DNA from: an uncultured Gallionella sp.
GTDB taxonomy: Bacteria > Pseudomonadota > Gammaproteobacteria > Burkholderiales > Gallionellaceae
Direction: 5' to 3'
DNA length: 64,000 bases
NCBI GenBank assembly: GCA_964623195.1
Contig: CAZURE010000003.1
Location: 19,910-83,909 of the forward strand
Position numbers and translations under genes: made by a program. The notes below the pieces were generated by a model that was given only the letters and a program-made list of their open reading frames with translations, was not told where the DNA came from and did not search any database. Positions 3,197 through 63,640 of the stretch are shown in pieces; the first letter of the stretch is position 1, and each line of letters begins with the position of its first letter.

Positions 3197-5992
3197 ATGC
3201 TCGGGGAGGGCGCTTTTGTGAAACGGTACAGCATCAGCAATTATGTTATCTGGCTCACGTTGGTGCCATTGCTGGTGGTTGTGTTATTGCTTGAGGCACT
3301 ATTCCTGCATCACCGTTTTGAAGCGATTGACGATACATTGCTTGAGCGCGGCAAACTCATCGCCAGCCAAATTTCTTCGAGTGCGGAATACGGCGTGTTT
3401 TCTAATAACCTGTTGTTTTTGCAAAATATCGCGCAGGACACTTTACAGCAGGTGGATGTACAAGATGTCATTATTCTTGATGCATCATCAAACCCGCTTT
3501 TTGAAACAGTAGCGCTTTCCGTTGAGCCAAATGAAAATGTTGCAGTCGATGCAAACAGCACAATGTCGGTTGCTAGCCCGCTTTGGTCAACACGCATTCA
3601 AAAGATCAAGGAATCCGTCAATTTAAGTAATCCGACACATTTTGGCGAAAAGAGTCTGTGGATATTCCAGCCTATCCTTCCTTTACCAGTGGCATTGGGT
3701 GAGATGGAGATTAACCCGGCTGTTGAGCCAATAGGTTCAGTCATTGTGGAAATGAGTCGCACGCGGACCATTGAGTTGAAGACGAAAATATTATGGATTT
3801 TGGCGGGTATAACCGCCCTATTCCTTGCACTCCCGTTTTTCTTGGCTTATCTGTTCAACCGCAATATCCTTTCGCCCATCAGAAGGCTTAGCAATACCGT
3901 GCAGTCAATTGGTGAAGGGCATTTGGAAACTCGCGCTTCCGCCGGATCGGAGCATATAGATGAGTTGGATAATCTTGTACACGGCGTCAATGATATGGCT
4001 GCAAAGTTGCAGCAGGAGAATGCGATCTTGCATCAGCGCATGGAAGAGGCGGTTCGCATTGCTGCAATCGCCTTTGAATCTCATGAAGGGATGATGATTG
4101 TAGATGCAACCACATGCAAGATCATCCGCATCAATCAGGCATTTACCGATATTTACGGCTACACAGAATTGGATGTCATCGGGGAAACGCCGAGTCGGTT
4201 CAAATCCACTCACCATGACGACAGTTTTTATAAGTCGATTTGGGAAGGCATCAATACTCAGGGATTTTGGCAGGGAGAGATTTGGAATCGCTGCAAAAAT
4301 GGTGAAGTCCATCCGGCTTGGGCAAACTTTACGTCTATACCAAATGAAGGCTTTAAAGGTGAACCAATCTCGTATTACATCGCGACCTATTCTGATATTA
4401 CCGAGCGGCATGAACGCGAAAAAGCACTACAGGCGGAAAGCCTTGCCAAGAGTGAGTTTCTCGCCAACATGAGTCACGAGATCCGCACCCCGATGAACAG
4501 CCTCATTGGTATGACCCGACTTGCGCTCGATGCCTCAATCAGTTTCCAGACGCAAGCTTACCTAGAAAAAATTCAACTCTCTGGCGAGCACCTTATGTGC
4601 ATCCTTAATGACATTCTCGACTTCTCTCAGATTGAGTCTGGAAAGTTGAGAATTGAAATGACCGATCTCAATATCCGTGAGGTGATGGATGATGCCATCA
4701 GTCTGATAGGAAATGCAGTGGATGCAAAGGGGCTCAAACTCAGTATTAAGCTTGAGCCTACTATCCCAATTTACTTATGCGGCGATTCTCTGCGGCTGAA
4801 CCAGATTCTGCTCAACTACATCAATAACGCCGTCAAGTTTACTGAGCGTGGCGAAATCTCTGTCACGGTCAGCGAGGTTGAATCAGGCAATGATTATTCA
4901 TTGCTGCGTTTCGCGGTGCAGGACACCGGCATCGGCATCCAGGCGGAGGACGTTGAACAGTTATTCAAGCCTTTCGAACAGGCCGACACTTCAACCACTC
5001 GAAAGTATGGTGGATCCGGCCTCGGGCTGGTCATCAGTAAACGGTTGGCGAAGTTGATGGGCGGTGAAGTAGGTTTAGAGAGCGAGCTTGGCAAAGGCTC
5101 TACCTTCTGGTTTACCGCGCGGTTGAACAAAAGCACAAGCAAAGCCAAGGGGGAGAGCAAGGTTGCCTTGGCAACTTATAATAAAGAAGCTGTAGCAGAT
5201 GCGCTAAAGGGTGCACACATCCTGCTGGTCGAAGATGATTTGCTCAATCAGGAAGTCGCCGCCACTTTTCTGCAACGTATGGGCGTGAATGTATCCATCG
5301 CCAACAACGGACAGGAAGCGATTGAAGTATTACACCGGGAGCCTTTCGACTGCGTATTGATGGATATCCAAATGCCGGTAATGGATGGTCTCAATGCGGT
5401 TAAGTTAATCCGCAGTGATGCTTCATTGGCGAATTTAAAAGTGATTGCCATGACTGCCAACGCCTCCAACAGTGAACGTGATCATTTTCTTGCATTAGGC
5501 ATGGACGACTTTATCAGCAAACCATTTGACCCAACCACGCTTTACACCACTATTGCAAAATATCTTTCTGCTCGCTCAAAATCAAACGTTACCGATTTCA
5601 TTGCACCTACTCCTGACACTGAAATTAGCAATGGCACGACGTTGGAAGGCAAAGACTGTATGAGTGATGTTCCGATTTTGGTTGAGTTATTTGACAATGA
5701 ACCAAATGAAATCCGGGAATTTATTTCTAAATCCCTCGTGTCATTACGAGAGGATGTAGCCAGAATCGAAGCAGCGATAGCACTTAAAGACATGTCAGAA
5801 GTTAGGGCAATCGCACACCGCATCTATTCTCCAGCACAAATGATCGGGGCGATTGAGTTTGCAGATATATGCAATGTACTTAGGCAAAGCGAAAATTCAG
5901 AAAGAGCGCAACGGTTCGTCAATCAATCCAGTCAACTCCTGCAAGATATGGAGCAGAAATTCGAACAAATGCTAAAACAAGATACTGCATAA
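3197..5992 (+). CDS. Hybrid sensor histidine kinase (2 TM, HAMP, PAS, HisKA, HATPase, REC, Hpt), BarA/GacS-like
   Basis: H-box FLANMSHEIRTPMN, N-box NYINNAVKFT, G-boxes, REC with DIQMPVMDG, Hpt AHRI; start could be the GTG at 3218. Confidence 0.9.
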   Translation: MLGEGAFVKRYSISNYVIWLTLVPLLVVVLLLEALFLHHRFEAIDDTLLERGKLIASQISSSAEYGVFSNNLLFLQNIAQDTLQQVDVQDVIILDASSNPLFETVALSVEPNENVAVDANSTMSVASPLWSTRIQKIKESVNLSNPTHFGEKSLWIFQPILPLPVALGEMEINPAVEPIGSVIVEMSRTRTIELKTKILWILAGITALFLALPFFLAYLFNRNILSPIRRLSNTVQSIGEGHLETRASAGSEHIDELDNLVHGVNDMAAKLQQENAILHQRMEEAVRIAAIAFESHEGMMIVDATTCKIIRINQAFTDIYGYTELDVIGETPSRFKSTHHDDSFYKSIWEGINTQGFWQGEIWNRCKNGEVHPAWANFTSIPNEGFKGEPISYYIATYSDITERHEREKALQAESLAKSEFLANMSHEIRTPMNSLIGMTRLALDASISFQTQAYLEKIQLSGEHLMCILNDILDFSQIESGKLRIEMTDLNIREVMDDAISLIGNAVDAKGLKLSIKLEPTIPIYLCGDSLRLNQILLNYINNAVKFTERGEISVTVSEVESGNDYSLLRFAVQDTGIGIQAEDVEQLFKPFEQADTSTTRKYGGSGLGLVISKRLAKLMGGEVGLESELGKGSTFWFTARLNKSTSKAKGESKVALATYNKEAVADALKGAHILLVEDDLLNQEVAATFLQRMGVNVSIANNGQEAIEVLHREPFDCVLMDIQMPVMDGLNAVKLIRSDASLANLKVIAMTANASNSERDHFLALGMDDFISKPFDPTTLYTTIAKYLSARSKSNVTDFIAPTPDTEISNGTTLEGKDCMSDVPILVELFDNEPNEIREFISKSLVSLREDVARIEAAIALKDMSEVRAIAHRIYSPAQMIGAIEFADICNVLRQSENSERAQRFVNQSSQLLQDMEQKFEQMLKQDTA

Positions 5993-38712: not shown

Positions 38713-40767
38713 GTGCAAATGCAGGCCGATGAACTTATGAATATCCAATTCTCTTTGGCCGCTCTGAACCTAGTATCTGTTAGGGAGGCCAAAAAACCAC
38801 AGGGGACACACCAAGTTGTGGCCCTTGGTAAGCTAACCCTCTTATTTCTTGTATTGCTCTTCCCCTCTTTCGCATTCGCGTCAGAGCCAACCCATAGAAC
38901 TGCGCAAACCGCTCTCCACATACTCGACTATATAAGTGTTGACTATGGCGGCATTATTTTCCTTGGAAAGGTCATCAATCAGGCCGAATACAAGGAGCAG
39001 CTTGAGTTTTCCAAGCGATCTATACAGTTGCTTGATGAATTGCCCGATCATCCCCGCAAAGAAAAGCTCGTCGCACAAGCACGGACACTGTCTGATTTGA
39101 TCCGTGATAAATCCGCCTCCGATCTCGTCAGCGAAACCGCTCAGCAGCTACGACAGGAAATCATTACGGCATACCAAGTATCTGTAGCACCCAATAGCAT
39201 TCCCACCCTTAAGGGCACAGCCGAATTATTTGCACAGAATTGTATTAAATGCCATGGCGCAGAAGGACATGGTGATGGCCCTGAAAGCAAAAAGCTAACG
39301 CCACCGCCCGCTAATTTCCACGACAACGCCCGCATGGGCCAACGAAATGTGTATGGCCTTTACAACACAATCACATTAGGTGTTTCAGGTACCGCAATGG
39401 AAAGTCACCCCGAGCTTACTGATGGCGAGCGTTGGTCTCTGGCTTTTTATCTCTCGAATTTGCGCATTCCAGATGACTATATTGAAAGGGGTCGAAAAAG
39501 CTGGGAGGGCAGGTCTTATCGCGGCCCGGCTCCGAGTATGGCCTCCCTGACGAGCCTGACCTCAAATGAAATATTAGTTCGTTATGGCGAGCAAACCAAC
39601 GCCGTATATGCTTATCTGCGCTCCAATCCCAATGCACTGACTGCAATCAAACATTCCACTCTGTTGTTTGCTAGCGAGCAACTGGATCAAGCATTATTTT
39701 TGTACCAGAGAGGCGAACAGTCAAAAGCACTGCGCTACTCCGTCGATGCATATCTTGAGGGCTTTGATCCCATGGAGATTAGTCTGGATAACCTTGACAA
39801 GAATCTCAGACTTGAAATCGAACACGAAATGCGTGAAATAAGGCATTTGATTAGCAAAAACAGTCCTATTTCAATGATTGAGAAAAAGATTACTCATACA
39901 AAAGCGCTTCTCAGACAAGCTGACGAACGGCTACGCGCCGGGAAACTGTCTGTCACCGGTGCCTTTTTCAGCTCATTCTTTGTTTTGCTTCGCGAGGGAA
40001 CAGAGGGAATGCTGATGCTCGCCGCCATCATCGCTTTTGTAGTGCGAAGCGAGCAAAGACAATTGCTTAAATATATCCATGCGGGATGGATTTCCGCGAT
40101 GCTGTTGGGCGCCCTGACTTGGATTGCATCCACATGGTTGATAGAAATTTCCGGGGCACAACGTGAAGTCACTGAGGGTGTCACCGCACTTATTGCCTCT
40201 GTCATGCTGATTTATGTTGGCTTCTGGCTACATGGTAAAACGCACACGAAGTCTTGGGACAAATTTCTGGATGAGCATACAAACATGGTGCTTGAAAGGA
40301 AAACGATATGGCTACTTGCGCTTGCATCCTTTTTTGCGATTTACCGTGAAATATTTGAAAGTGTATTGTTCTATCAAGCCTTGTGGGTACAGGTCAACGA
40401 TACAACCAAGCCCGCGCTATGGAACGGAATATTTGCCGCCTCATTGATTCTAGCTTCAATCGGATGGATGATTTTCAAATTTGGCGTTAGATTACCATTA
40501 GGCTTGCTGTTTGCTGCAACATCGTTATTCCTAGGACTGATGGCAGTTATATTCGCAGGCCAAGGAGTAGCCGCTTTACAGGATGCCAACATTATTACAA
40601 GCGACCCTGTCCACTTTCTTACATTGCCGATGTTGGGTTTCCATCCTACTGTTCAGACTCTACTAGTGCAGATTTCAGTTATCTGCATTCTCGCACTAAG
40701 CTATTTGCTACCCTCTCGTCGTCAATCCAACACTATCCTTGCGCCGGTAGAACATGAGAAAACTTAA
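38713..40767 (+). CDS. Cytochrome c/FTR1 iron permease fusion (PbrT/EfeU-like)
   Basis: CIKCH heme motif; two REGxE-type motifs (LREGTEG, YREIFES); start may be ATG 38734. Confidence 0.9.
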   Translation: MQMQADELMNIQFSLAALNLVSVREAKKPQGTHQVVALGKLTLLFLVLLFPSFAFASEPTHRTAQTALHILDYISVDYGGIIFLGKVINQAEYKEQLEFSKRSIQLLDELPDHPRKEKLVAQARTLSDLIRDKSASDLVSETAQQLRQEIITAYQVSVAPNSIPTLKGTAELFAQNCIKCHGAEGHGDGPESKKLTPPPANFHDNARMGQRNVYGLYNTITLGVSGTAMESHPELTDGERWSLAFYLSNLRIPDDYIERGRKSWEGRSYRGPAPSMASLTSLTSNEILVRYGEQTNAVYAYLRSNPNALTAIKHSTLLFASEQLDQALFLYQRGEQSKALRYSVDAYLEGFDPMEISLDNLDKNLRLEIEHEMREIRHLISKNSPISMIEKKITHTKALLRQADERLRAGKLSVTGAFFSSFFVLLREGTEGMLMLAAIIAFVVRSEQRQLLKYIHAGWISAMLLGALTWIASTWLIEISGAQREVTEGVTALIASVMLIYVGFWLHGKTHTKSWDKFLDEHTNMVLERKTIWLLALASFFAIYREIFESVLFYQALWVQVNDTTKPALWNGIFAASLILASIGWMIFKFGVRLPLGLLFAATSLFLGLMAVIFAGQGVAALQDANIITSDPVHFLTLPMLGFHPTVQTLLVQISVICILALSYLLPSRRQSNTILAPVEHEKT

Positions 40768-48891: not shown

Positions 48892-49830
48892 TTATAGCTG
48901 AATGGAATGACCGAAATGCTTCTGGTACAAATCTGCTAATTCGGCACGGGTATATTTATGGTTCTGTCCGCCACGACTGGCAATTTTGAGCGCTCCCATC
49001 AACGAAGCAAGGCGACCGGTCGCTTCCCAATCCCAGCCACTCTGAATACCGTACATCAAGCCTGAACGATATGCATCACCGCAACCGGTTGGATCGACGA
49101 TAGCTTCCGGCTTGGGTGTTGGAATAACGATTTGCTTGCCACCCGCATAGATCAACGATCCATCGCCACCCAAGGTAACGATCAGTGCATCAACGCGTTG
49201 TGCAAGATCATCCAGTGTCTTCCCGGTTTTGTCCTGCAACATCTTGGCTTCGTAGTCATTCACAGTGACGTAGGTGGCCTGATCAACAAAGGTCAACAGC
49301 TCAGGCCCGGAGAACATCGGCATACCCTGACCCGGATCGAAAATGAAAGGAATATCCAGATCAGCAAATTCAAGCGCATGTTGCATCATGCCTTCGCGGC
49401 CATCCGGCGATACGATTCCGAGTGATACCTCTTTAGCTGCTGCGACATTATTCAGATGAGAATGCCCCATCGCACCCGGATGGAACGCGGTAATCTGATT
49501 ATCATCAAGGTCGGTCGTGATGAAAGCCTGACCGGTGAAGTTATCCGGCACATGCTTAATATGAGACTGGGAGATACCGAGATTATCCAAGCGCGTACCA
49601 TAAGGTGCAAAATCATCGCCCACTGTCGCCATGATTAGCGGACTACCGCCCAGCATCTGCAAATTGTAGGCAATATTACCTGCACAACCACCGTATTCGC
49701 GGCGCATCTCCGGCACTAAAAAAGCGACGTTCAAGATATGTATCTGCTCGGGAAGTATGTGCTTCTTGAATTGATCCTTGAACACCATGATGGTGTCATA
49801 GGCCATAGAGCCGCAAATCAGCGTATTCAT
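48892..49830 (-). CDS. PfkB-family carbohydrate/nucleoside kinase
   Basis: GGCAGNIAY, VDPTGCGDAYRSG. Confidence 0.92.
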   Translation of the reverse strand: MNTLICGSMAYDTIMVFKDQFKKHILPEQIHILNVAFLVPEMRREYGGCAGNIAYNLQMLGGSPLIMATVGDDFAPYGTRLDNLGISQSHIKHVPDNFTGQAFITTDLDDNQITAFHPGAMGHSHLNNVAAAKEVSLGIVSPDGREGMMQHALEFADLDIPFIFDPGQGMPMFSGPELLTFVDQATYVTVNDYEAKMLQDKTGKTLDDLAQRVDALIVTLGGDGSLIYAGGKQIVIPTPKPEAIVDPTGCGDAYRSGLMYGIQSGWDWEATGRLASLMGALKIASRGGQNHKYTRAELADLYQKHFGHSIQL

Positions 49831-55833: not shown

Positions 55834-56903
55834 GACTTCCTGCTTGTTTTGTTCACGATCCACTTACCATCTTGTTTTAGCGTCAGCATGGTGCGTGTGC
55901 CGTCAGTGCGGCTGCGGGTGAATTTACGTGCCATCAAAAAATAGATGCCATCGATGCCGTGTGGCTCTGAATCCACGCGAATGCGCTGCCCCGGTTTCCA
56001 TAACAGGCCATCGGCAGGTTGGCCGGGTGCAACGATGCGATGCCCTTGCACTTGGACGGTTAGCGTCAAGCCATTCAAATGACTTTCGTCGATGATCTTT
56101 TGCGCACGATTGCGGCACTCTGCCACGCTGTCGCACGCATCGGTCACGATCTTGGGGCGATGCCATTTGATGTCCTTGTCTTCCACGGTGTCACGCAGCG
56201 CATTCTTTCCTTGCTCTTGCTCAGTGCCATGCGCTTGCCCAAGCACGGTCACTTTTGAATAGCGACCATGCATGGAGATATTTTGTTTCAGGCTGAGCAC
56301 GTTATTGTCTTTGCCATCTCGTTTGATGATTAGCGTCGCCGAAACAGGCACTGTGTAATCCGGCCCGCCAATCACCAGCGTGCCATCCGGCTCGAACCAA
56401 GGCCATAAACCGTTGGCTTCGGCAGCATGAACCAACGCATTCCAAGCGGTATCGCCGGGCTGGATGTTGACCTTCTCACGTATCAGCGTCGCATCGGCAT
56501 CTATTCGCGGCGGCTTGATGCCGAACTCAGTGACCAGCTTGGCGGCGATCTCTTTCAGGCTGACCTGCTTGACACCGAATAGCGGTGCGGAACAATCCAG
56601 CAGGTCGGCGGCTTTATCGCGCCCGGACAAGCTAAAAGTATTATCGTTTTTGCTGACTTGATGATTGATCTCATCCACACGACCCGTCATCACCACATCA
56701 TCATCTACACGTACTTCGACTGACGCACCCGCAGCAACAGCGGGCGGCATTTGGTTTAATGCCATACCCAGCGACACCTGCCAGGCATCGGCAGGGACGA
56801 GCAGATCGCTATCGATCTCATAACTTTGCCAGCGGTCATGCATCTGCCCGCCAATCAATAATTTAACCCTATCAATTTGTGTAGGCTCAACGGGAGTAGG
56901 CAT
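55830..56903 (-). CDS. Baseplate hub (Mu gp44/GpD-like)
   Basis: WQSYEIDSDLLVPADAW, GRDKAADLLDCS, WKPGQRI. Confidence 0.9.
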   Translation of the reverse strand: MPTPVEPTQIDRVKLLIGGQMHDRWQSYEIDSDLLVPADAWQVSLGMALNQMPPAVAAGASVEVRVDDDVVMTGRVDEINHQVSKNDNTFSLSGRDKAADLLDCSAPLFGVKQVSLKEIAAKLVTEFGIKPPRIDADATLIREKVNIQPGDTAWNALVHAAEANGLWPWFEPDGTLVIGGPDYTVPVSATLIIKRDGKDNNVLSLKQNISMHGRYSKVTVLGQAHGTEQEQGKNALRDTVEDKDIKWHRPKIVTDACDSVAECRNRAQKIIDESHLNGLTLTVQVQGHRIVAPGQPADGLLWKPGQRIRVDSEPHGIDGIYFLMARKFTRSRTDGTRTMLTLKQDGKWIVNKTSRKS

Positions 56904-58149
56904 GGAGCGAGTCTCCGGCTTGCACGAAATTCGGCAGGCGCAAGTTATTCAAACGTTGTAGTTCAGATGCGCGGTTGTGATCGCCATAGAACGCATGCGC
57001 GATCAGGCGTAGATTCCCCGGCGTTTTAACCGTGCGCGAAATCAACGGCGGTCGTGCTTCGATGATGGCGCGTGCGGTGGTTTGCAACGCCAGTGCCTGA
57101 TTCTTTAACGGCTCGGTGATGGTGCGGCTTTGCTCTATGCTATAGGTCAAGCGCACCTGTTCGATGGTGGCGTCGATATCAGCGCGTGCGATATTGACGA
57201 TGGCTTCTATCTGTACCGGTGAGCGTGTCGCGGTATCGGCCTCGCTGACCATCATCAAACCCGCAGCATTGGCGAGTGTGACGGTGCTATTCACCACAAT
57301 CGTCACGGCAACAGCAGCACCAGCTTGGTCTTCTGTCGGGGCTGTGCCAGCAGAAATCTGTGAGCTGGCTTCATACTTTTTAAAGATGGCAAAGGCATTG
57401 AGATCATTGCGTATGCTTATCCAGTCCTGCTCAAGTTGTTCGCGCCAGTCGTACACATCCAGCAAGTTATTCACAATGGCAGAAATATCATTACCCCAGG
57501 CACGCGGGTAAGCCAACACATCAAGGCCGGACAAGGTCACGCTGATGCCGGTGGTCAATGCCAGTAGCGGTTGGATCATACTGGCGCGTGTTTGGTCCAG
57601 TGCTGAAAGCGGATTTGCCACACGCAGGCGATCAATGACCGAGCCATGCACTTCGCTTGCTGCCGCACTGGCCTGAGTGCCATGATTTTTGATGTCCTCG
57701 GCTTTTTGTGACGCAACCTCCCGCGAGAAAAATGTTGCTGCGGTAGTGGACTCGACGAATTCGATGGACACGCTGGCTTGATCAAATTTTTCCGCGTCGT
57801 GACGAATCTTATAACTGGCGACCTGCACAAACATCAGCCCGAATACCGGGTGCTGTAACCAGCCGCCTTGAGCCTGTCCTGATCCTGTCGAAGGGACAAC
57901 ACCATTCTGCTCATCTTTTCCAGCTAATGCCGCTTCGAACTCTTGCAGCGCTGACTCGTAATCATCCCCGTAAAAAATCGCCTGTACCGAAATCTTGCGC
58001 GAACGCCGACCCATGTTCTCGACATCCGCTCCATCCACATAAGGGTAGGAATGTTCGACCAAGACATGGTCCGCAGCGTCATCGGTAGAGATGCAATCGA
58101 AAACGATGCCCCTGAAAGATGCGTCCAATAATGTATCTCGCCAACTCAT
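56887..58149 (-). CDS. DNA circularisation/tail protein (Mu gp43-like)
   Basis: LLDASFRGIVF, HSYPYVDGADVENMGR, LQHPVFG, LIAHAFYGDHNRA LysM-like end. Confidence 0.9.
   Translation of the reverse strand: MSWRDTLLDASFRGIVFDCISTDDAADHVLVEHSYPYVDGADVENMGRRSRKISVQAIFYGDDYESALQEFEAALAGKDEQNGVVPSTGSGQAQGGWLQHPVFGLMFVQVASYKIRHDAEKFDQASVSIEFVESTTAATFFSREVASQKAEDIKNHGTQASAAASEVHGSVIDRLRVANPLSALDQTRASMIQPLLALTTGISVTLSGLDVLAYPRAWGNDISAIVNNLLDVYDWREQLEQDWISIRNDLNAFAIFKKYEASSQISAGTAPTEDQAGAAVAVTIVVNSTVTLANAAGLMMVSEADTATRSPVQIEAIVNIARADIDATIEQVRLTYSIEQSRTITEPLKNQALALQTTARAIIEARPPLISRTVKTPGNLRLIAHAFYGDHNRASELQRLNNLRLPNFVQAGDSLHAYSR
57871..57896. repeat. REP-like element fragment in frame within gp43
   Basis: GCCTGTCCTGATCCTGTCGAAGGG, one mismatch from the recalled repeat GCCTGTCCTGAGCCTGTCGAAGG; encodes PSTGSGQA. 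Confidence 0.55.
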
Positions 58150-58151
58150 AG

Positions 58152-58206
58152 TGCGAGATTACGCAAGTGCGAATGCACAGTTAAGACGGAAAGCGTTCCG
58201 GGGGAA
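58152..58206 (-). repeat. Direct repeat copy A with CGGAA-N4-TTCCG dyad; probable late promoter for gp43
   Basis: Shares blocks TGCGAGATTAC, GCGAATG, AGTTAAGACGGAAA, TTCCGGGG with 59121-59177. Confidence 0.8.
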
Positions 58207-58245
58207 ACCTGAGCTTAAGCCGGGGAGTGGCGGCTAGTAATAAAG

Positions 58246-58590
58246 CTAATCGTTCTTAGCGCCGTTCTGTATCCAATGATAGATCGCCCATTTCTTTTCT
58301 TCAGACAGCTTGGACCCTTTAGGCATTCGCTCGGTGGCGACCATGTAATACAGCCGGCTTTCCAAAGGCTTTCCAGCCTTAACAACGTTTTGAATGCTGC
58401 GGTAATCCATCAGGAAAGGGGGGCGGGCGGCGTGGCAATATGAACAAATCTCGCCGAATACGTTTTGGCTAAGCCATGTGTAAGTCGGCTTAACGCTGTG
58501 ATCAACAGCAATATCAGGGGGCGGCTTTAATACCACCGTTTCACACGCTGCGAGTGACAGGCTCAATAGTGAGATAAGCAATAAACGCAT
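58246..58590 (-). CDS. Lipoprotein monoheme c-type cytochrome
   Basis: Lipobox LAAC, CSYCH, distal MPKG, C-terminal HWIQNGA. Confidence 0.8.
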   Translation of the reverse strand: MRLLLISLLSLSLAACETVVLKPPPDIAVDHSVKPTYTWLSQNVFGEICSYCHAARPPFLMDYRSIQNVVKAGKPLESRLYYMVATERMPKGSKLSEEKKWAIYHWIQNGAKND

Positions 58591-58703
58591 AGGCCTATCA
58601 TAATGAAAATCGAACGTTCTTGGGAAAGCTTAATGGCGTCTTGCCGTTATCTAGCTACTGAGTTGCTGCGTTTCTGTCATTGTCGACTTGTTATACTCTC
58701 GCA

Positions 58704-59006
58704 ATGAAGACATTTAATATGGCATCCAATATCTTCCTGGTACTTTTGCTACTCTTTTTATTATTTGCATTCGGATTTTCTCTGGATGATCAAATGGTTC
58801 TGGATGGTCTGATAGGGATTTCTATTGTTCTGTTCGTTATCGCGTATTTAATAGCGTTTGTTCTTAGGATATTTTTTTACCCGTCAGATGAATCTGATTC
58901 ACAGCCATCCGATGCGAAGTGGAATTGGTCACAAGTGGTGATGTGGATAGTCGTGCTCGCCTTAATTTCTTTGCGGATATGGTATGACATATCAAAAGTC
59001 GCCTGA
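58704..59006 (+). CDS. 3-TM small membrane protein, paralog 1 (100 aa)
   Basis: Three hydrophobic segments with an acidic loop; TGTTATACT 6 nt before the ATG. Confidence 0.7.
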   Translation: MKTFNMASNIFLVLLLLFLLFAFGFSLDDQMVLDGLIGISIVLFVIAYLIAFVLRIFFYPSDESDSQPSDAKWNWSQVVMWIVVLALISLRIWYDISKVA

Positions 59007-59120
59007 TTTTTCTCCTAGCATTATTGTAGAAATGACAATTCGTCATTTTCAGAATCGCTACTGACTCGACAATCTTCTTCTATCTCCGAAAGTAGCGATT
59101 CCAAATGCCTATAGAAGTGT

Positions 59121-59177
59121 TGCGAGATTACCCTTAGGCGAATGTGACGTAGTTAAGACGGAAAACATTCCGGGGAA
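59121..59177 (-). repeat. Direct repeat copy B immediately after the tape-measure stop codon
   Basis: Same four conserved blocks and dyad as 58152-58206. Confidence 0.8.
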
Positions 59178-60425
59178 TTATTGGCGAGCAGCGTTGCGTG
59201 TATGCGCTTGATCAACCGATGCAACGATGTTGCCGTTTTGCACCTCGACGACAACCTTGGTGGGTTCTTGCTTGCCGTTAATTAAATCATGTAGATAAAA
59301 ACCTAGTTTCGTTTCTTCGCCGGATACGGCGCTCACCAGCGAATCTATACCATCGCGCACCACAGGGCCAACTACGTCTCGGCCAAACGAAAATGACTCT
59401 TTCAGATAGTCAAGCGAACGCACCTTATTAATTAGCCCCAAAGTTCTGCCACCCTTGCTGGGTTTACCATTGCCTCCCCGCATGGCGGCTTCACGATTTT
59501 TCTCATTGCGTTTTTGTCGTAATGGCTCTCCTTTCGAAAGCATTCCGCTCGGCCAGTTGGTGACAAATACGCTCTGTACATCCATTGAGCCAGCAACGTT
59601 AGCGAACCTCCCCGTCTTACCACCCGATTTTTTCCTGCGGTTTTTGTACAAACTCACCCCAGCTAGGGCCGTGGTCAAACCCCCTATCACGCCCATTTCT
59701 AAGCCAAGCCCGCCTGTCGGTGCAGTATCGTCCGCCGATTTCCCCGGTGAATTGCTAGCGTTAGCGGTGATTTTGTCAGAACTATCGGAGGATGTCAGCT
59801 TATCAACCTGAATTTCTGCCGCCTTGATTTTGCCGAAGTCAGCCTGTTTAGCTTCGGCAAAATCAGTGCTGAGCCGTTTGCTTTTTGCCGTTTGATCTGC
59901 GGAAGCCACCTCGCTGCGGATGATGTCCGAGTTTTCCATCAAGGCTTGAATCAGTTGATTGGTTTCCCGGTTATTAAAGCCTGCCTGACCTGTCTTGAGG
60001 TTATCTTCCAGTCCTTTTGCTTTCATCACATCGACTAACTCCAGCAAACCCTCTACACCGCCTTCGCCGCGAAACTTTCCATCCGGCGCAAATTTTTCGA
60101 CATCGATGTCAAAATTTTTCAACGCTTCTACATATTGTGCGCTGGTGCTATTCACCAGTCCATACTGCATTTTCGCCTTGGCCTGCTCAGGACTATTGGC
60201 GGAGGCAGATTTCTGCAACACCTGTGTCATTGCTCCAGTGAGGTTTAGGCCACGCTCACCTTTTATACCGACCGCTTCCAGGCCAGTTGACTGCGGCTGT
60301 TTGAAGTCACGACGCACCGCACCAAGTCCCTGTGTGCTTTGCTCGTTAAAGCGGCGCATCACTGCCATAGCCTCGGGAGTAGCCTGCACCAGCAGTGTCG
60401 ACGTGTGATTGCGATCATTGTTCAT
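59178..60425 (-). CDS. Short tape-measure protein (415 aa)
   Basis: Position between chaperone and gp43; Mu-type motifs VQSVFVTNWP and KVVVEVQNGNIVASV; GAGGA Shine-Dalgarno. Confidence 0.75.
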   Translation of the reverse strand: MNNDRNHTSTLLVQATPEAMAVMRRFNEQSTQGLGAVRRDFKQPQSTGLEAVGIKGERGLNLTGAMTQVLQKSASANSPEQAKAKMQYGLVNSTSAQYVEALKNFDIDVEKFAPDGKFRGEGGVEGLLELVDVMKAKGLEDNLKTGQAGFNNRETNQLIQALMENSDIIRSEVASADQTAKSKRLSTDFAEAKQADFGKIKAAEIQVDKLTSSDSSDKITANASNSPGKSADDTAPTGGLGLEMGVIGGLTTALAGVSLYKNRRKKSGGKTGRFANVAGSMDVQSVFVTNWPSGMLSKGEPLRQKRNEKNREAAMRGGNGKPSKGGRTLGLINKVRSLDYLKESFSFGRDVVGPVVRDGIDSLVSAVSGEETKLGFYLHDLINGKQEPTKVVVEVQNGNIVASVDQAHTRNAARQ

Positions 60426-60442
60426 TTGCTATACTTCCTCAT

Positions 60443-60811
60443 ATGAATATATATATAACGACGTTCAAGATATTCTTTGTATTTTTGCTTATTCTGATAC
60501 TTTCATATTTCTTTGCAGTGCCACTGGAATATCGATCGTCTCTGGAAGAGAGATTCTCTCTGGAGGATGCAATAGGTGCTATTTCTGTACTGTCTTTTAT
60601 GCTGCTTATATTGTCGTATCTTCTAGCGTTTATTCTGATTTTTGTTTTAAGGGCAATTTCTTCGATGCAATCAGAGCAGTCCGATCAGGAGTCGGAGGAG
60701 TCCTCTGGAAACTATTCGTTTTCGTTGACCGAAACGTTGATACTTTTTGCTATCGTGTCCGTATTAGTTTATCTCGGGGTACCATCAATATGGTCTCTCC
60801 TGACTAAATAG
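60443..60811 (+). CDS. 3-TM small membrane protein, paralog 2 (122 aa)
   Basis: Three hydrophobic segments; FSLED and SYLLAF match paralog 1; TGCTATACT 7 nt before the ATG. Confidence 0.7.
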   Translation: MNIYITTFKIFFVFLLILILSYFFAVPLEYRSSLEERFSLEDAIGAISVLSFMLLILSYLLAFILIFVLRAISSMQSEQSDQESEESSGNYSFSLTETLILFAIVSVLVYLGVPSIWSLLTK

Positions 60812-60947
60812 CTAGCTCTCTTAAAATGATGGCGTTTCGCATCTTCAGAAATACTACTGATGCGACGCTTTCCTTTCGCTTCAACATCCTTGGGGCTGTC
60901 TATTTACAGTATGATGACTGTCACTTTTCATTTGTTATAATTTTCCT

Positions 60948-61196
60948 ATGACATTTAAGATTTTAGTGATATTCCTGCTACTCCTGATCCTCCATCAACT
61001 CGGACTTACTTCGGTGGAATTGATTGGTGCTGGTTTATCGCTGTCAGCCCTGATAGCACTGCCGCAGATGGTGAAGAGCCTGACAGGTTGGTTTTCCTCA
61101 ACGGAGGCATCATGGACTGAGAAAGCAATGCCAATAATTTTCTTATCGGTTGCCGCTTTATTATTTCTTGGCATGGTGTTTTTTTCACCTTCCTGA
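60948..61196 (+). CDS. 3-TM small membrane protein, paralog 3 (82 aa)
   Basis: TFKILVIFLLLLIL versus TFKIFFVFLLILIL of paralog 2; TGTTATAAT 6 nt before the ATG. Confidence 0.7.
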   Translation: MTFKILVIFLLLLILHQLGLTSVELIGAGLSLSALIALPQMVKSLTGWFSSTEASWTEKAMPIIFLSVAALLFLGMVFFSPS

Positions 61197-61415
61197 CTGA
61201 CCCTTCCGCCTAGCCCCCTTGTAATGATGCCGCTTCGCATCCCCAGAGCCACCTCTGACGCGACGCTGTTCTTCCATCTCAGCAGCAACCATTCCTAATA
61301 TCCATAGCCATTGCCCTTCGGTCAGGTCGCAGGCGGGGAGGCCAAAGCAGTGATAAGCTTTTTCAGCATGGCGGTACTTAAATCGTTCAAAGGCGGATTC
61401 TCCGGCGTTTTTTTT
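61185..61415 (-). CDS. -1 frameshift extension of the tail assembly chaperone (GT-type fusion)
   Basis: A-AAA-AAA slippery site at 61409-61415; -1 frame open to TGA at 61185 (KNAGESAFERFKYRHAEKAYHCFGLPACDLTEGQWLWILGM...). Confidence 0.7.
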   Translation of the reverse strand, partial: KKNAGESAFERFKYRHAEKAYHCFGLPACDLTEGQWLWILGMVAAEMEEQRRVRGGSGDAKRHHYKGARRKGQSGR

Positions 61416-61810
61416 ACTGTCTCGACCAGTGCGATGAATTCTTCATCCCCCATCGTCCGTTCGGAGGGCGAGAAGGTTTTTTCGTGTTCGAGATAGGCTT
61501 CGATCAGCGCGGATTTTTCATCACGGGTGATGACTTCACGCAACGCCAGGGCAGAGTCTGCCAGCGGTTTTTTTGTGACCGGGTCTATCATGGCGCGGTA
61601 GAGCAACTGGCTGGCTTTTTCTGATTCAAAGGCTTCGGAAGAGGACAGGCTAAGTTCTACCCCGGCATCTATCATGGCGACTTCGGTGGCGATTTGTGCA
61701 TCGAGATAGTCTTGCTCGGTCAGTACCCGCAGGCCGATCTTCACCCCGTTGAGGGTGGTCTCGCAGGTTGCTGCGCGACCGGCCTTGAGCTTATCGAGTA
61801 AGCTGCTCAT
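61322..61810 (-). CDS. Tail assembly chaperone
   Basis: Between tube and tape measure; ends VKKTP at a slippery site. Confidence 0.8.
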   Translation of the reverse strand: MSSLLDKLKAGRAATCETTLNGVKIGLRVLTEQDYLDAQIATEVAMIDAGVELSLSSSEAFESEKASQLLYRAMIDPVTKKPLADSALALREVITRDEKSALIEAYLEHEKTFSPSERTMGDEEFIALVETVKKTPENPPLNDLSTAMLKKLITALASPPAT

Positions 61811-62178
61811 AGATTAACCTTCCTCAAACAATACAGGCTGATGTCGCGCACCATTTCGCCTTCGAGTTGATAGCGCGAGTTGATGCTGGTGACGTTGCAG
61901 TCTTGAAAGGTGGTGCGCTTGGATGTGTTACCCAGCGGGTAGATGACGATCTGTGCATCCAGCATGGCTTCCCAGTCGTATTCTCCAGACGCAGGGGCGG
62001 GCGCGGTGATTTTCAGCTCGTAGGTTTTCATACCGCTTACGCTGCCTTTGGCGTGGCCGGTGCGGTTCATGGTTTTAACCGCCTTGCGCCCTCCGTTGAC
62101 TGTTTCGTCGAATGACACTACATCGACTTCTTGACCGTTGATCTCGACTACTATTTCGCCGTCGTATTCGATTGACAT
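61807..62178 (-). CDS. Tail tube protein
   Basis: Follows the sheath gene; YDGEIVVEING...KTMNRTGHAKG. Confidence 0.85.
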   Translation of the reverse strand: MSIEYDGEIVVEINGQEVDVVSFDETVNGGRKAVKTMNRTGHAKGSVSGMKTYELKITAPAPASGEYDWEAMLDAQIVIYPLGNTSKRTTFQDCNVTSINSRYQLEGEMVRDISLYCLRKVNL

Positions 62179-62221: not shown

Positions 62222-63640
62222 TTACAGCAACAGATCTATGCGTCCGGCAAACACATGCAAGCCGTTCACGACGTCTGTCGGTATCTTGGCATTGAGCCGG
62301 TTGGGGTCTTGCAGATCACGTTCTACGATCAGTCCGTTTTTGTTCGCATCCACGTTTTCGACGACTTCCAATTCCTCAAGTTTGTAGAGCACATCAAGTA
62401 GTTGGTCGCGCACTTTCGGGGCGGTGCGTTGCGATAGTTTCTCGCGCGGGAAGCGCAGGGCGACTCGTTCACGACAGGCTTTGCGCACATAGTCCAGGGT
62501 GCGGATGGTGGTGAGGTCGAGCAGGCTGATGTCGGGGATGGCTTGTGCATCGAGTGTGTAGGTGGTGATAGCTCGCACGATTTGCACTTTTTCTCCCGGC
62601 CCGACTTCGAGCGGGGTGACGCCGTTGTATAGCGCGTTTTCTTGCTCGGTGCGGCTGAGCCTGTCTGCCAATGCCGGGGCGGTAACGCCTTTTAATTCGA
62701 GCAGGTTGAGTGGGCGTGCCGGGTCTTCTTCGCTCGCTACCACTGCGCCATAGGCGGCAGCCAATTCGCAGGGTTGCTCGGGCACTTTGATGTTAGGTGC
62801 ACTGATGCGCCCGGTGTTGATGGATGCTGCCAAAGTGGTCGAGGCGGCAAGTGTGCCAGTGTGACTGTAGATGCCGATTGCACCGCGTTGTTCCAAGGGG
62901 CTGCTGACGTTATCGAGATGGTCGCGCAATGTGGTCAGGCTAGTGGCATCGTTGAATGCTGAGATGATGTTGTCGTGACCTGCGCCGAATACATTGGCGA
63001 GCGGTGTTGCTATGTCCGGGTCGGATGCACCGGATGTCATCGCCACGACGGCGGCAGTGATGCCGTTGGCTGAGCTGGTGGTTTGCAGGCTGATGTTATT
63101 GCCTTGCGTACCTTTGTTTTTTGCGGTCAAGGTGACTACGGCTGCTGTGGCGGCTGCCGTGACCGGGAGATCCGGTTGTAATCCGATTTGTGCAACCAGT
63201 GCATTGGCGATAGCCGTTGCGCTATCCGTTGCGGCAATGGCGATCTGCACCCGCTTGCCTGCCACATTGAGAGTGAATGCGCCGCCAGAAGTGGCCGTGC
63301 CGGTGATGGTGACCGTGCCTTCGGCAGCGATACCGGCACCGGCATCATCCAGCGCGATGGCTTGTAGCGCGAGATAGGGATTCGCCTTGATCGCAGCACG
63401 GCACATCAGGTGCAGTTGTGAGCCGTTGCCAAAGTAGGTGGCGGCCTCGGTGTCGGAGAATATATCCGTCACCACATCTGCGGCTACGCTACCAGCGGCG
63501 ATACGTTGACCGATGATTAAGGTCTTTTGCAGGTTGCCGGGCAAGGTGCGCACCGCTAACTTGGTGTTGAATTCAAAATATTTGCCGGGCTTGCGGATGC
63601 TTGCCGGAATGTTGTCGAAGTCGATATTTGTGCTGGCCAT
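62222..63640 (-). CDS. Contractile tail sheath protein (Mu gpL-like)
   Basis: IRKPGKYFEFN, EEDPARPLN, NGVTPL, DLTTIRTLDYVR, VVNGLHVFA. Confidence 0.95.
   Translation of the reverse strand: MASTNIDFDNIPASIRKPGKYFEFNTKLAVRTLPGNLQKTLIIGQRIAAGSVAADVVTDIFSDTEAATYFGNGSQLHLMCRAAIKANPYLALQAIALDDAGAGIAAEGTVTITGTATSGGAFTLNVAGKRVQIAIAATDSATAIANALVAQIGLQPDLPVTAAATAAVVTLTAKNKGTQGNNISLQTTSSANGITAAVVAMTSGASDPDIATPLANVFGAGHDNIISAFNDATSLTTLRDHLDNVSSPLEQRGAIGIYSHTGTLAASTTLAASINTGRISAPNIKVPEQPCELAAAYGAVVASEEDPARPLNLLELKGVTAPALADRLSRTEQENALYNGVTPLEVGPGEKVQIVRAITTYTLDAQAIPDISLLDLTTIRTLDYVRKACRERVALRFPREKLSQRTAPKVRDQLLDVLYKLEELEVVENVDANKNGLIVERDLQDPNRLNAKIPTDVVNGLHVFAGRIDLLL

Follow-up and report, generated by a model that had tools for sequence, protein, structure and literature searches.

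The window analysed here, a stretch of 64 kb of DNA, contains three small open reading frames (ORFs) that run antisense to the tail operon of a Mu-like myovirus prophage and lie on both sides of the gene for its tape-measure protein (TMP; 59178-60425, - strand, 415 aa). ORF1 (58704-59006, + strand, 100 aa) is located between the TMP stop codon and a cytochrome-c-like gene. ORF2 (60443-60811, + strand, 122 aa) is divergent from TMP, with the two start codons 17 bp apart. ORF3 (60948-61196, + strand, 82 aa) is convergent on the frameshift extension of the tail chaperone gene and overlaps the 3' end of that extension with the 12 nt of its own stop end. Both ORF2 and ORF3 fall into the interval from the extension end at 61185 to the TMP start at 60425. 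An earlier reading of this DNA from its letters alone (the sequence-only reading) had described three ORFs here; we confirm their positions, the + strand and the orientation opposite to the tail operon, and find the peptide strings that it quoted in the translations. The array region is AT-rich and T-skewed on the + strand, with a GC content of 0.437-0.458 (58-59 and 60-61 kb bins) versus 0.53-0.57 in the flanking tail genes. ORF1 is called as a gene in metagenome contigs, and gene callers are inconsistent on ORF3 and on the start of ORF1 across contigs of identical sequence. We conclude that the three ORFs very probably belong to a real, lineage-restricted family of small inner-membrane moron genes, which was amplified by tandem duplication and evolves fast together with TMP.

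ORF1 and ORF2 are paralogs beyond composition and hydrophobic bias. BLASTP with compositional adjustment gives E=5e-8 for the pair. The Smith-Waterman score lies at z=11 relative to fully shuffled sequences; when shuffling leaves each hydrophobic and polar segment where it is, z is 6.5, and 0 of 1000 shuffles score as high. Compared directly, ORF3 has no significant similarity to ORF1 or ORF2 (BLASTP E ~0.1; z=1.2-2.7). The claim that all three share sequence thus holds directly for ORF1 and ORF2, but for ORF3 only through intermediates from a sister haplotype of the prophage. These came from database searches. ORF2 as a query against 5.8 billion protein clusters had no match except the family itself, and a three-sequence profile search of the same clusters together with an exhaustive hidden Markov model search of 1.84 billion representative proteins gave four clusters in total, one of them new (P0004, 116 aa). 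No family homolog was found outside this phage lineage among the 1.84 billion proteins. For the paralogs no family of Pfam, PHROG or NCBIfam rises above cut-off, the PADLOC-DB models give zero matches at E<=0.1 (four paralogs and the cytochrome-c-like protein), and the DNA of the region has no match in 50,697 phage records. Owing to its divergence, the family alignment was unsuited to back-translated scans of metagenome and viral contigs.

P0004 is found on contigs L086-L091, from the same metagenomes, and these contigs represent a sister haplotype (B) of the same prophage. Haplotype B is 95-98% identical in nucleotides to the window, which carries haplotype A, in both flanks of the array (the gp43 side and the chaperone-extension side), and the TMPs of A and B are 53% identical in amino acids. 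On contig L087, haplotype B has five antisense paralogs: ORF1b (L087:706-1065, 119 aa), B84a (L087:1555-1809, 84 aa), B84b (L087:3700-3954, 84 aa), B73 (L087:4224-4445, 73 aa) and B116 (L087:4678-5028, 116 aa), the last being P0004. Another contig, L002, has haplotype A with an additional unit of the lipoprotein gene and ORF1b, so that the copy number is 3, 4 or 5 depending on the contig. ORF3 has highly significant similarity to the haplotype-B paralogs B73 (z=9.6), B84b (z=7.5) and B84a (z=4.8), and B84a in turn matches ORF1 (z=4.1) and B116 (z=5.4), which makes ORF3 a family member by transitive homology. The pairwise tests define a long subfamily (ORF1, ORF1b, ORF2 and B116) and a short one (ORF3, B73 and B84b), with B84a bridging the two at topology-preserving z of 4-8 to members of both.

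The 98 nt upstream of ORF2 and of B116 are 90.8% identical, whereas the proteins are 34% identical; likewise, ORF1 and ORF1b have a lipoprotein-and-promoter flank that is ~95% identical and proteins that are 35% identical. Identity shifts sharply at the ORF boundaries, and the paralogs and TMP move as one hypervariable module between haplotypes A and B.

All eight copies, at 14-47% amino-acid identity, are open frames of 73-122 codons in T-rich DNA. From base composition we estimate a stop chance of ~4.6% per codon in the array DNA, at which a 100-codon frame stays open with a probability of ~1%. The repeat units also contain an internal control: the sense-strand relics within them are broken by stops, and the antisense frames are kept open. 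The sequence-only reading had noted three hydrophobic segments with a polar loop before the third, and we find this arrangement, with an acidic loop, in ORF1, ORF2 and ORF3. In the whole family the plan is a short N-terminus with Lys (TFK motif), transmembrane helix (TM) 1, a turn with GFS[LIM][DE][DA], TM2 ending in LRI, an acidic loop and TM3. It is kept in 7 of the 8 copies; B84b is without the third helix. The AlphaFold2 model has helices at 2-25, 28-37, 40-80 and 95-121 and a disordered acidic loop, at low confidence (predicted local distance difference test score 62.7). The products are likely small inner-membrane proteins with the N-terminus inside, three helices and an acidic periplasmic turn with the GFS motif. 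The ratio of nonsynonymous to synonymous substitution rates (dN/dS) is mostly 0.5-0.9 with synonymous sites saturated, which is weak evidence, and single-nucleotide differences among the near-identical contigs are too few for a selection test on the ORFs.

The origin of the array can be read from the scars between its genes. The repeat unit consists of the 3' end of the chaperone extension, an antisense ORF and the 5' end of TMP. Each unit keeps sense relics of the last ~25 extension codons (..DAKRHH[YF]K..) and of the first 16-30 TMP codons, truncated by stops; the TMP relics start with MNNDRNHT.., MSMDTENT.. or MKSDSHHT... The scar between ORF2 and ORF3 (60812-60931, - strand) contains remnants of the extension end (..EDAKRHHFKRA..) and of the TMP start (MKSDSHHT..), both closed by stops, and corresponds to repeat D1 (72%). 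The scar 3' of ORF1 (59007-59177, - strand; repeats D5 and D6) holds another relic of the extension end and a copy of the junction between TMP and gp43. This ~50-bp junction is duplicated, with 59121-59175 matching 58152-58203, and its copies flank the ORF1-type unit. Haplotype B in turn contains fused relics of the TMP N-terminus and the extension. The scars in the window and the fused relics in haplotype B demonstrate repeated tandem duplication of the chaperone-TMP junction, and together with the five copies in haplotype B they bear out the proposal of an expanding, diversifying array. The family grew by repeated tandem duplication of one such unit, and we suggest that one copy moved to the TMP-gp43 junction along with a captured host lipoprotein gene. 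The coding bodies diverge very fast, with the 5' flanks staying conserved. We also considered ORF2 and ORF3 as the antisense of a decayed TMP N-terminus. This was rejected: the N-terminus of the window TMP is authentic and has its homolog in haplotype B, and the sense frames in the ORF2-ORF3 gap amount to no more than short remnants of the extension end and of the TMP start.

The 5' flanks carry a common signal. Ahead of all eight paralogs there is an extended -10 element, TG-n-TATA-c/a-T (TGnTATAcT), with 5-7 nt between its 3' end and the ATG, and all eight lack a Shine-Dalgarno sequence. In the window the elements are TGTTATACT for ORF1 (58689-58697, + strand, ending 6 nt before the ATG), TGCTATACT for ORF2 (60427-60435, + strand, 7 nt) and TGTTATAAT for ORF3 (60933-60941, + strand, 6 nt). 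For ORF3, the -10 element and the ATGACT hexamer at -35 match 10 of 12 consensus positions. The related promoters proposed by the sequence-only reading are real upstream elements, specific to the family within the window: CATTTGcTATAcT (60423) and CATTTGtTATAaT (60929) are the sole matches to CATTTGnTATAnT on both strands of the 64 kb, and the counterpart upstream of ORF1 is aCTTGtTATAcT at 58687. The looser arrangement of TGnTA...T 5-7 nt before an ATG that opens an ORF of at least 50 codons occurs 5 times in the window (128 kb over both strands), and 3 of the 5 are the family. The ORF2 element is flanked by the TMP start codon (60423-60425) on one side and by the Shine-Dalgarno sequence of TMP (AGGAAG, - strand, 60436-60441) on the other, so that the divergent ORF2 and TMP have 17 bp of control region in common. 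We rejected the explanation that the motif merely mirrors the TMP start on the opposite strand, as no TMP start accompanies it in the units of ORF1, ORF1b and B84a.

With the extended -10 element ending 5-7 nt before the ATG and no Shine-Dalgarno sequence, transcription is predicted to start at or next to the A of the ATG and to give a leaderless mRNA, for which lambda cI is the textbook precedent. Leaderless translation and expression in the lysogen would follow from this arrangement. The ~75-130 nt downstream of each ORF are likewise repeated. A hairpin is located 3' of ORF1 (59040-59056, ATGAC..GTCAT), of ORF2 (60840-60856, GATGgCG..CGCATC) and of ORF3 (61238-61254, GATGC..GCATC); its copies differ and yet keep the pairing, and a T-run follows the ORF1 copy only, the one place where the hairpin is convincing. 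These hairpins may be terminators or may be inherited from the extension coding sequence.

ORF1 is divergent from the cytochrome-c-like gene (58246-58590, - strand), which encodes a lipoprotein of 114 aa with the lipobox LAAC, a CxxCH haem-binding motif and a distal MP motif. It has weak matches to cytochrome c families (Pfam E=0.003; cytochrome c of bc1 in PDB, E=0.009) and a match to the NCBIfam LIC11213 lipoprotein family at E=6e-11 that is below the cut-off. The genes most similar to it (79-84% identity) are chromosomal and lie in non-phage surroundings, which points to a host gene captured by the phage. ORF1 arrived together with this gene, and the lipoprotein is a part of the repeated ORF1-type cassette; in the sister contigs it is present as a tandem duplicate with one copy broken.

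The TMP assignment is based on the genes in the TMP position of related loci, the best-matching of which are 31-37% identical over ~250-270 residues, on a match to phrog_973 (E=7e-6) and on synteny. The hydrophobic segment of the window TMP covers about residues 235-260, and the haplotype-B TMP has an equivalent. TMP as a query had no match in the GTDB genomes, and the sheath was used as the query there instead. The TMP of the window has an internal deletion of ~140 aa relative to the 531-aa TMP of haplotype B (L087:2061-3683), and the latter has a nonsense codon at codon 185 in 5 of 6 contigs, being intact only in L088 (1254-2849).

Among ~60 related loci, tube and TMP are usually ~500 bp apart, and TMP and gp43 0-70 bp; in the window these distances are 1382 and 1028 bp. 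L013, L005 and L006 have no insert in the slot between the chaperone and TMP. In L009 (Sulfuriferula), L011, L014 and L085 (from IMG/VR), a single small antisense ORF of 63-101 aa with 2-3 hydrophobic helices lies between the extension stop and TMP, and L077 is a less certain case. In the three of these loci whose sequence was read (L009, L011 and L085), the ORF starts ~17-22 bp from the TMP start, and in L085 TGCTAGGCT is located 6 nt before its ATG. These ORFs have the slot, the antisense orientation and a small product of 2-3 helices in common with the window family. However, they are single-copy and show no detectable sequence relation to it, and at least the L011 ORF has a Shine-Dalgarno-like GAGG, unlike the window family. 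The presence of unrelated antisense ORFs in several relatives suggests that the slot is reused for small membrane genes. The sequence-only reading had proposed a survey of Mu-like elements for TMP-linked homologs; here, 80 related loci searched by tblastn with the paralogs and the lipoprotein as queries yielded no match. L014 has in addition another antisense insert (L014:12564-13190) at the TMP-gp43 junction, which encodes a 208-aa protein with CxxC pairs. This is the junction occupied in the window by the lipoprotein and ORF1 cassette, and thus it also appears to be an insertion hot spot.

The array lies, as the earlier reading held, in the slot of the HK97 gp15 exclusion moron (PMC3594210). 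HK97 gene 15 is the first moron described and occupies the same place between chaperone and TMP. Its base composition deviates from that of its neighbours, it has its own promoter, and its small product becomes inserted into the inner membrane, where entry of a genome is blocked in a manner that depends on the tail region of the incoming phage (Cumby et al. 2012, as summarised in PMC3594210). Two moron traits recur in the window: the units are extra DNA relative to most related loci at this position, and they deviate in base composition. As to transcription signals, the extended -10 is present in 8 of 8 paralogs, and a convincing hairpin with a T-run is located 3' of ORF1 only. There are also differences. 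The window proteins are without sequence similarity to gp15, no paralog reaches the cut-off of any Pfam or NCBIfam family, YebO included, and three helices are predicted instead of a single N-terminal one. Unlike gene 15, the window genes are antisense, predicted to be leaderless, present in 3-5 diverged copies and found also at the other side of TMP, and their element is a Mu-like myovirus, whereas HK97 is a lambdoid siphovirus.

T4 Imm, which binds TMP (bioRxiv 10.64898/2026.03.06.709160), is likewise a small phage-encoded inner-membrane protein; unlike the window family it is a single-copy early gene of a lytic phage, not placed beside TMP, and it has no homology to the window proteins. No Pfam or PHROG match links the paralogs to Imm, and a fold search in BFVD gave no match with E below 5, although the low-confidence model used as the query is too weak to compare folds. 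P22 SieA (PMC10883804), JBD26 Tab (PMC10884400) and SNIPE (PMC13190303) are prophage or host defences whose specificity maps to injection or to TMP, and they suggest TMP as a common, fast-evolving target. Their architectures and genomic positions are different and they have no homology to the window ORFs: SieA is larger, Tab acts on tail assembly as a soluble protein of 83 residues (PMC10884400), and SNIPE is a nuclease (PMC13190303). By our analysis, HK97 gp15 would be the nearest in mode of working, and the window proteins are not members of YebO/gp15, Imm, a holin family or a PADLOC system. New are the antisense orientation, the predicted leaderless extended -10 handle, the 3-5 diverged copies with scars on both sides of TMP, and the occurrence in a Mu-like myovirus of an iron oxidiser.

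We tentatively suggest superinfection exclusion at the injection step as the most likely function of the paralogs, giving it somewhat less than an even chance. This is based on their position, the membrane location, the independent antisense promoters, the hypervariability with conserved flanks, the variable copy number and the linkage to a hypervariable TMP. The units are very probably morons: AT-rich additions with transcription signals of their own that lie antisense within the late tail operon. Each paralog would probably be transcribed in the lysogen from its own extended -10 element as a leaderless mRNA, independently of late transcription. The membrane-resident products might then interfere with the inner-membrane channel that the TMP of the incoming phage makes, and different paralogs might cover different co-circulating TMP alleles. 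A further step, which we regard as a rather long shot, is an expandable repertoire of injection blockers: the leaderless-promoter handle would be conserved, the body swapped or diversified per tape-measure allele in the community, and junction duplication would build a polyvalent exclusion locus inherited with its own TMP.

Several points weigh against exclusion. The dN/dS values at saturation do not separate diversifying from relaxed selection, and searches of Pfam, PHROG, PADLOC, NCBIfam and BFVD found no resemblance in sequence or fold to a known exclusion protein. The co-variation with TMP is a single comparison of two haplotypes, and the four-copy L002 could be a chimeric short-read assembly. 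TMP appears impaired in both haplotypes, and the region could be a decaying locus with neutral duplications; host-level retention of a protective gene set would fit a decaying prophage, but relaxed constraint would fit it too. The untranslated gap that the array makes in the late mRNA should also cost the phage.

Other functions have to be weighed against exclusion. Host physiology is one of them, and an unlikely one in our estimate: the paralogs would be lysogenic-conversion membrane proteins with a role in the envelope, transport or respiration, perhaps with the co-amplified lipoprotein. Indeed, 3 of the 8 paralogs (ORF1, ORF1b and B84a) are divergently paired with a copy of the CxxCH lipoprotein and the pair is tandemly repeated, the lipoprotein was captured from the host, and the neighbouring host chromosome encodes an FTR1-cytochrome c fusion. 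However, the other five paralogs have no lipoprotein partner and no small gene for a protein of three helices adjoins the lipoprotein homologs on chromosomes, whereas extreme divergence with conserved flanks, variable copy number and the linkage to a hypervariable TMP fit a phage conflict better. The geometry of the locus might also suit membrane-active abortive-infection or toxin-like effectors, which would depolarise the cell once a restraint is lifted, with antisense late transcription as the regulator: small hydrophobic proteins are encoded antisense to a strongly regulated operon, whose late transcription would give complementary RNA. We consider this improbable, since type I toxin-antitoxin systems have products below ~60 aa with one TM and an antisense small RNA, and the paralogs, with 73-122 aa and three helices, are larger than typical toxins of this type. 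No Rfam match at E<=1 is present in 57900-61900, hence no antitoxin RNA of that database; PADLOC gives no match and there is no partner sensor gene, and constitutive promoters would make an unrestrained toxin lethal. The array might instead be mainly regulatory DNA, its constitutive antisense promoters silencing leaky late transcription in the lysogen by transcriptional interference, with the ORFs secondary. The most conserved part of the unit is indeed the promoter-like element and not the protein, and the ORF2 promoter overlaps the ribosome-binding site and the start codon of TMP. But the open frames and the plan of three helices are kept in nearly all of the eight diverged copies while the neighbouring relics decay, and the conserved motifs TFKI, GFSxDD and LRI are needless for interference, so that we give this reading little probability.

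A role as holin or antiholin in the timing of lysis, the alternative that the sequence-only reading had named, is poorly supported and seems highly improbable. Class I holins do have three TM helices and a similar size (~70-120 aa), and in ORF1, ORF1b and B116 a second Met at codon 6 after Lys is faintly like a dual-start motif; this Met is absent in ORF2, ORF3, B84a and B73. The 3-5 copies are antisense to the late genes inside a tail operon, where the neighbouring genes include neither a lysis cassette nor an endolysin, the short C-termini are not basic, and no holin family of Pfam, PHROGs or NCBIfam is matched. The array may also be a neutral by-product, with duplications in a decaying prophage region and ORFs that are unexpressed or functionless. 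The internally deleted TMP of the window, the nonsense codon in most haplotype-B contigs, the lost third helix of B84b and a dN/dS not far below 1 all agree with this. We nevertheless hold it to be improbable: eight diverged copies are all open, against the ~1% estimated for one frame of 100 codons, the geometry of promoter and start is conserved, and the adjacent relics have collapsed. Self-protection from a tailocin, which had been offered beside superinfection exclusion, is weakened by the head genes. A metagenome contig with an identical sheath gene has DUF1804, Portal_Mu, a capsid protein, gp36 and gp37 upstream of the sheath, and a 541-aa ORF without a Pfam match in the position of the large terminase. 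Such Mu-type genes upstream of the sheath mark the element as a prophage and not a tailocin.

If the paralogs do block entry as we suggest, they would be the first HK97 gp15-type defence to combine three traits: occurrence in Mu-like contractile phages of environmental betaproteobacteria, amplification to a multi-copy array that diversifies rapidly, and physical as well as evolutionary coupling to a hypervariable TMP gene. They would also provide a natural set of matched inhibitor and TMP variants for the study of how small membrane proteins recognise the injection channel. As several relatives use this slot for unrelated small membrane genes, exclusion genes may be worth seeking at the chaperone-TMP junction in general. 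The gene-junction tandem duplication with datable scars gives a concrete mechanism of moron multiplication. Even with another function, the family illustrates cleanly how small membrane genes of a single lineage can go unannotated and be treated inconsistently by gene callers.

The tail module as a whole occupies the right 14 kb of the window (~49.9-64 kb) on the - strand. It comprises the sheath (62222-63640, - strand), the tube (61807-62178, - strand), the gp41-like tail chaperone (61322-61810, - strand; with the -1 frameshift extension, 61185-61810), TMP and the gp43 DNA-circulation gene (56887-58149, - strand), and it is completed by the gp44-gp48 baseplate and fibre genes, at the end of which it adjoins a chromosomal pfkB kinase (48892-49830). 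The slippery run A AAA AAA of the chaperone is located at 61404-61417. The extension frame is open down to the stop at 61185 and is homologous to the extension frames of relatives (..FERFKYRHAEKAY..). Close to the slippery run, independent short-read metagenome contigs over the region all stop within a few bases of ~61392 (L003 at 61374), as would be expected if the assembly graph breaks where a strain-variable module borders on its flank.

Antisense inserts are also present among the head genes of this prophage (L182:3861-4451 and 5469-5711), namely a 196-aa protein of the ACP phosphodiesterase family and an 80-aa ORF; thus the late operon of this phage appears to hold several antisense morons. 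As judged from its genes, the host belongs to the uncultured Gallionellaceae-like betaproteobacteria: a Gallionella metagenome-assembled genome (MAG) has a sheath with 81% identity to that of the prophage, and for the chromosomal fructosamine kinase the identity to Gallionella MAG proteins does not exceed 76%. The chromosomal part of the window also encodes a 684-aa protein (38713-40767, + strand) in which a cytochrome c domain is fused to an FTR1 iron permease domain, which fits an iron-oxidising host.

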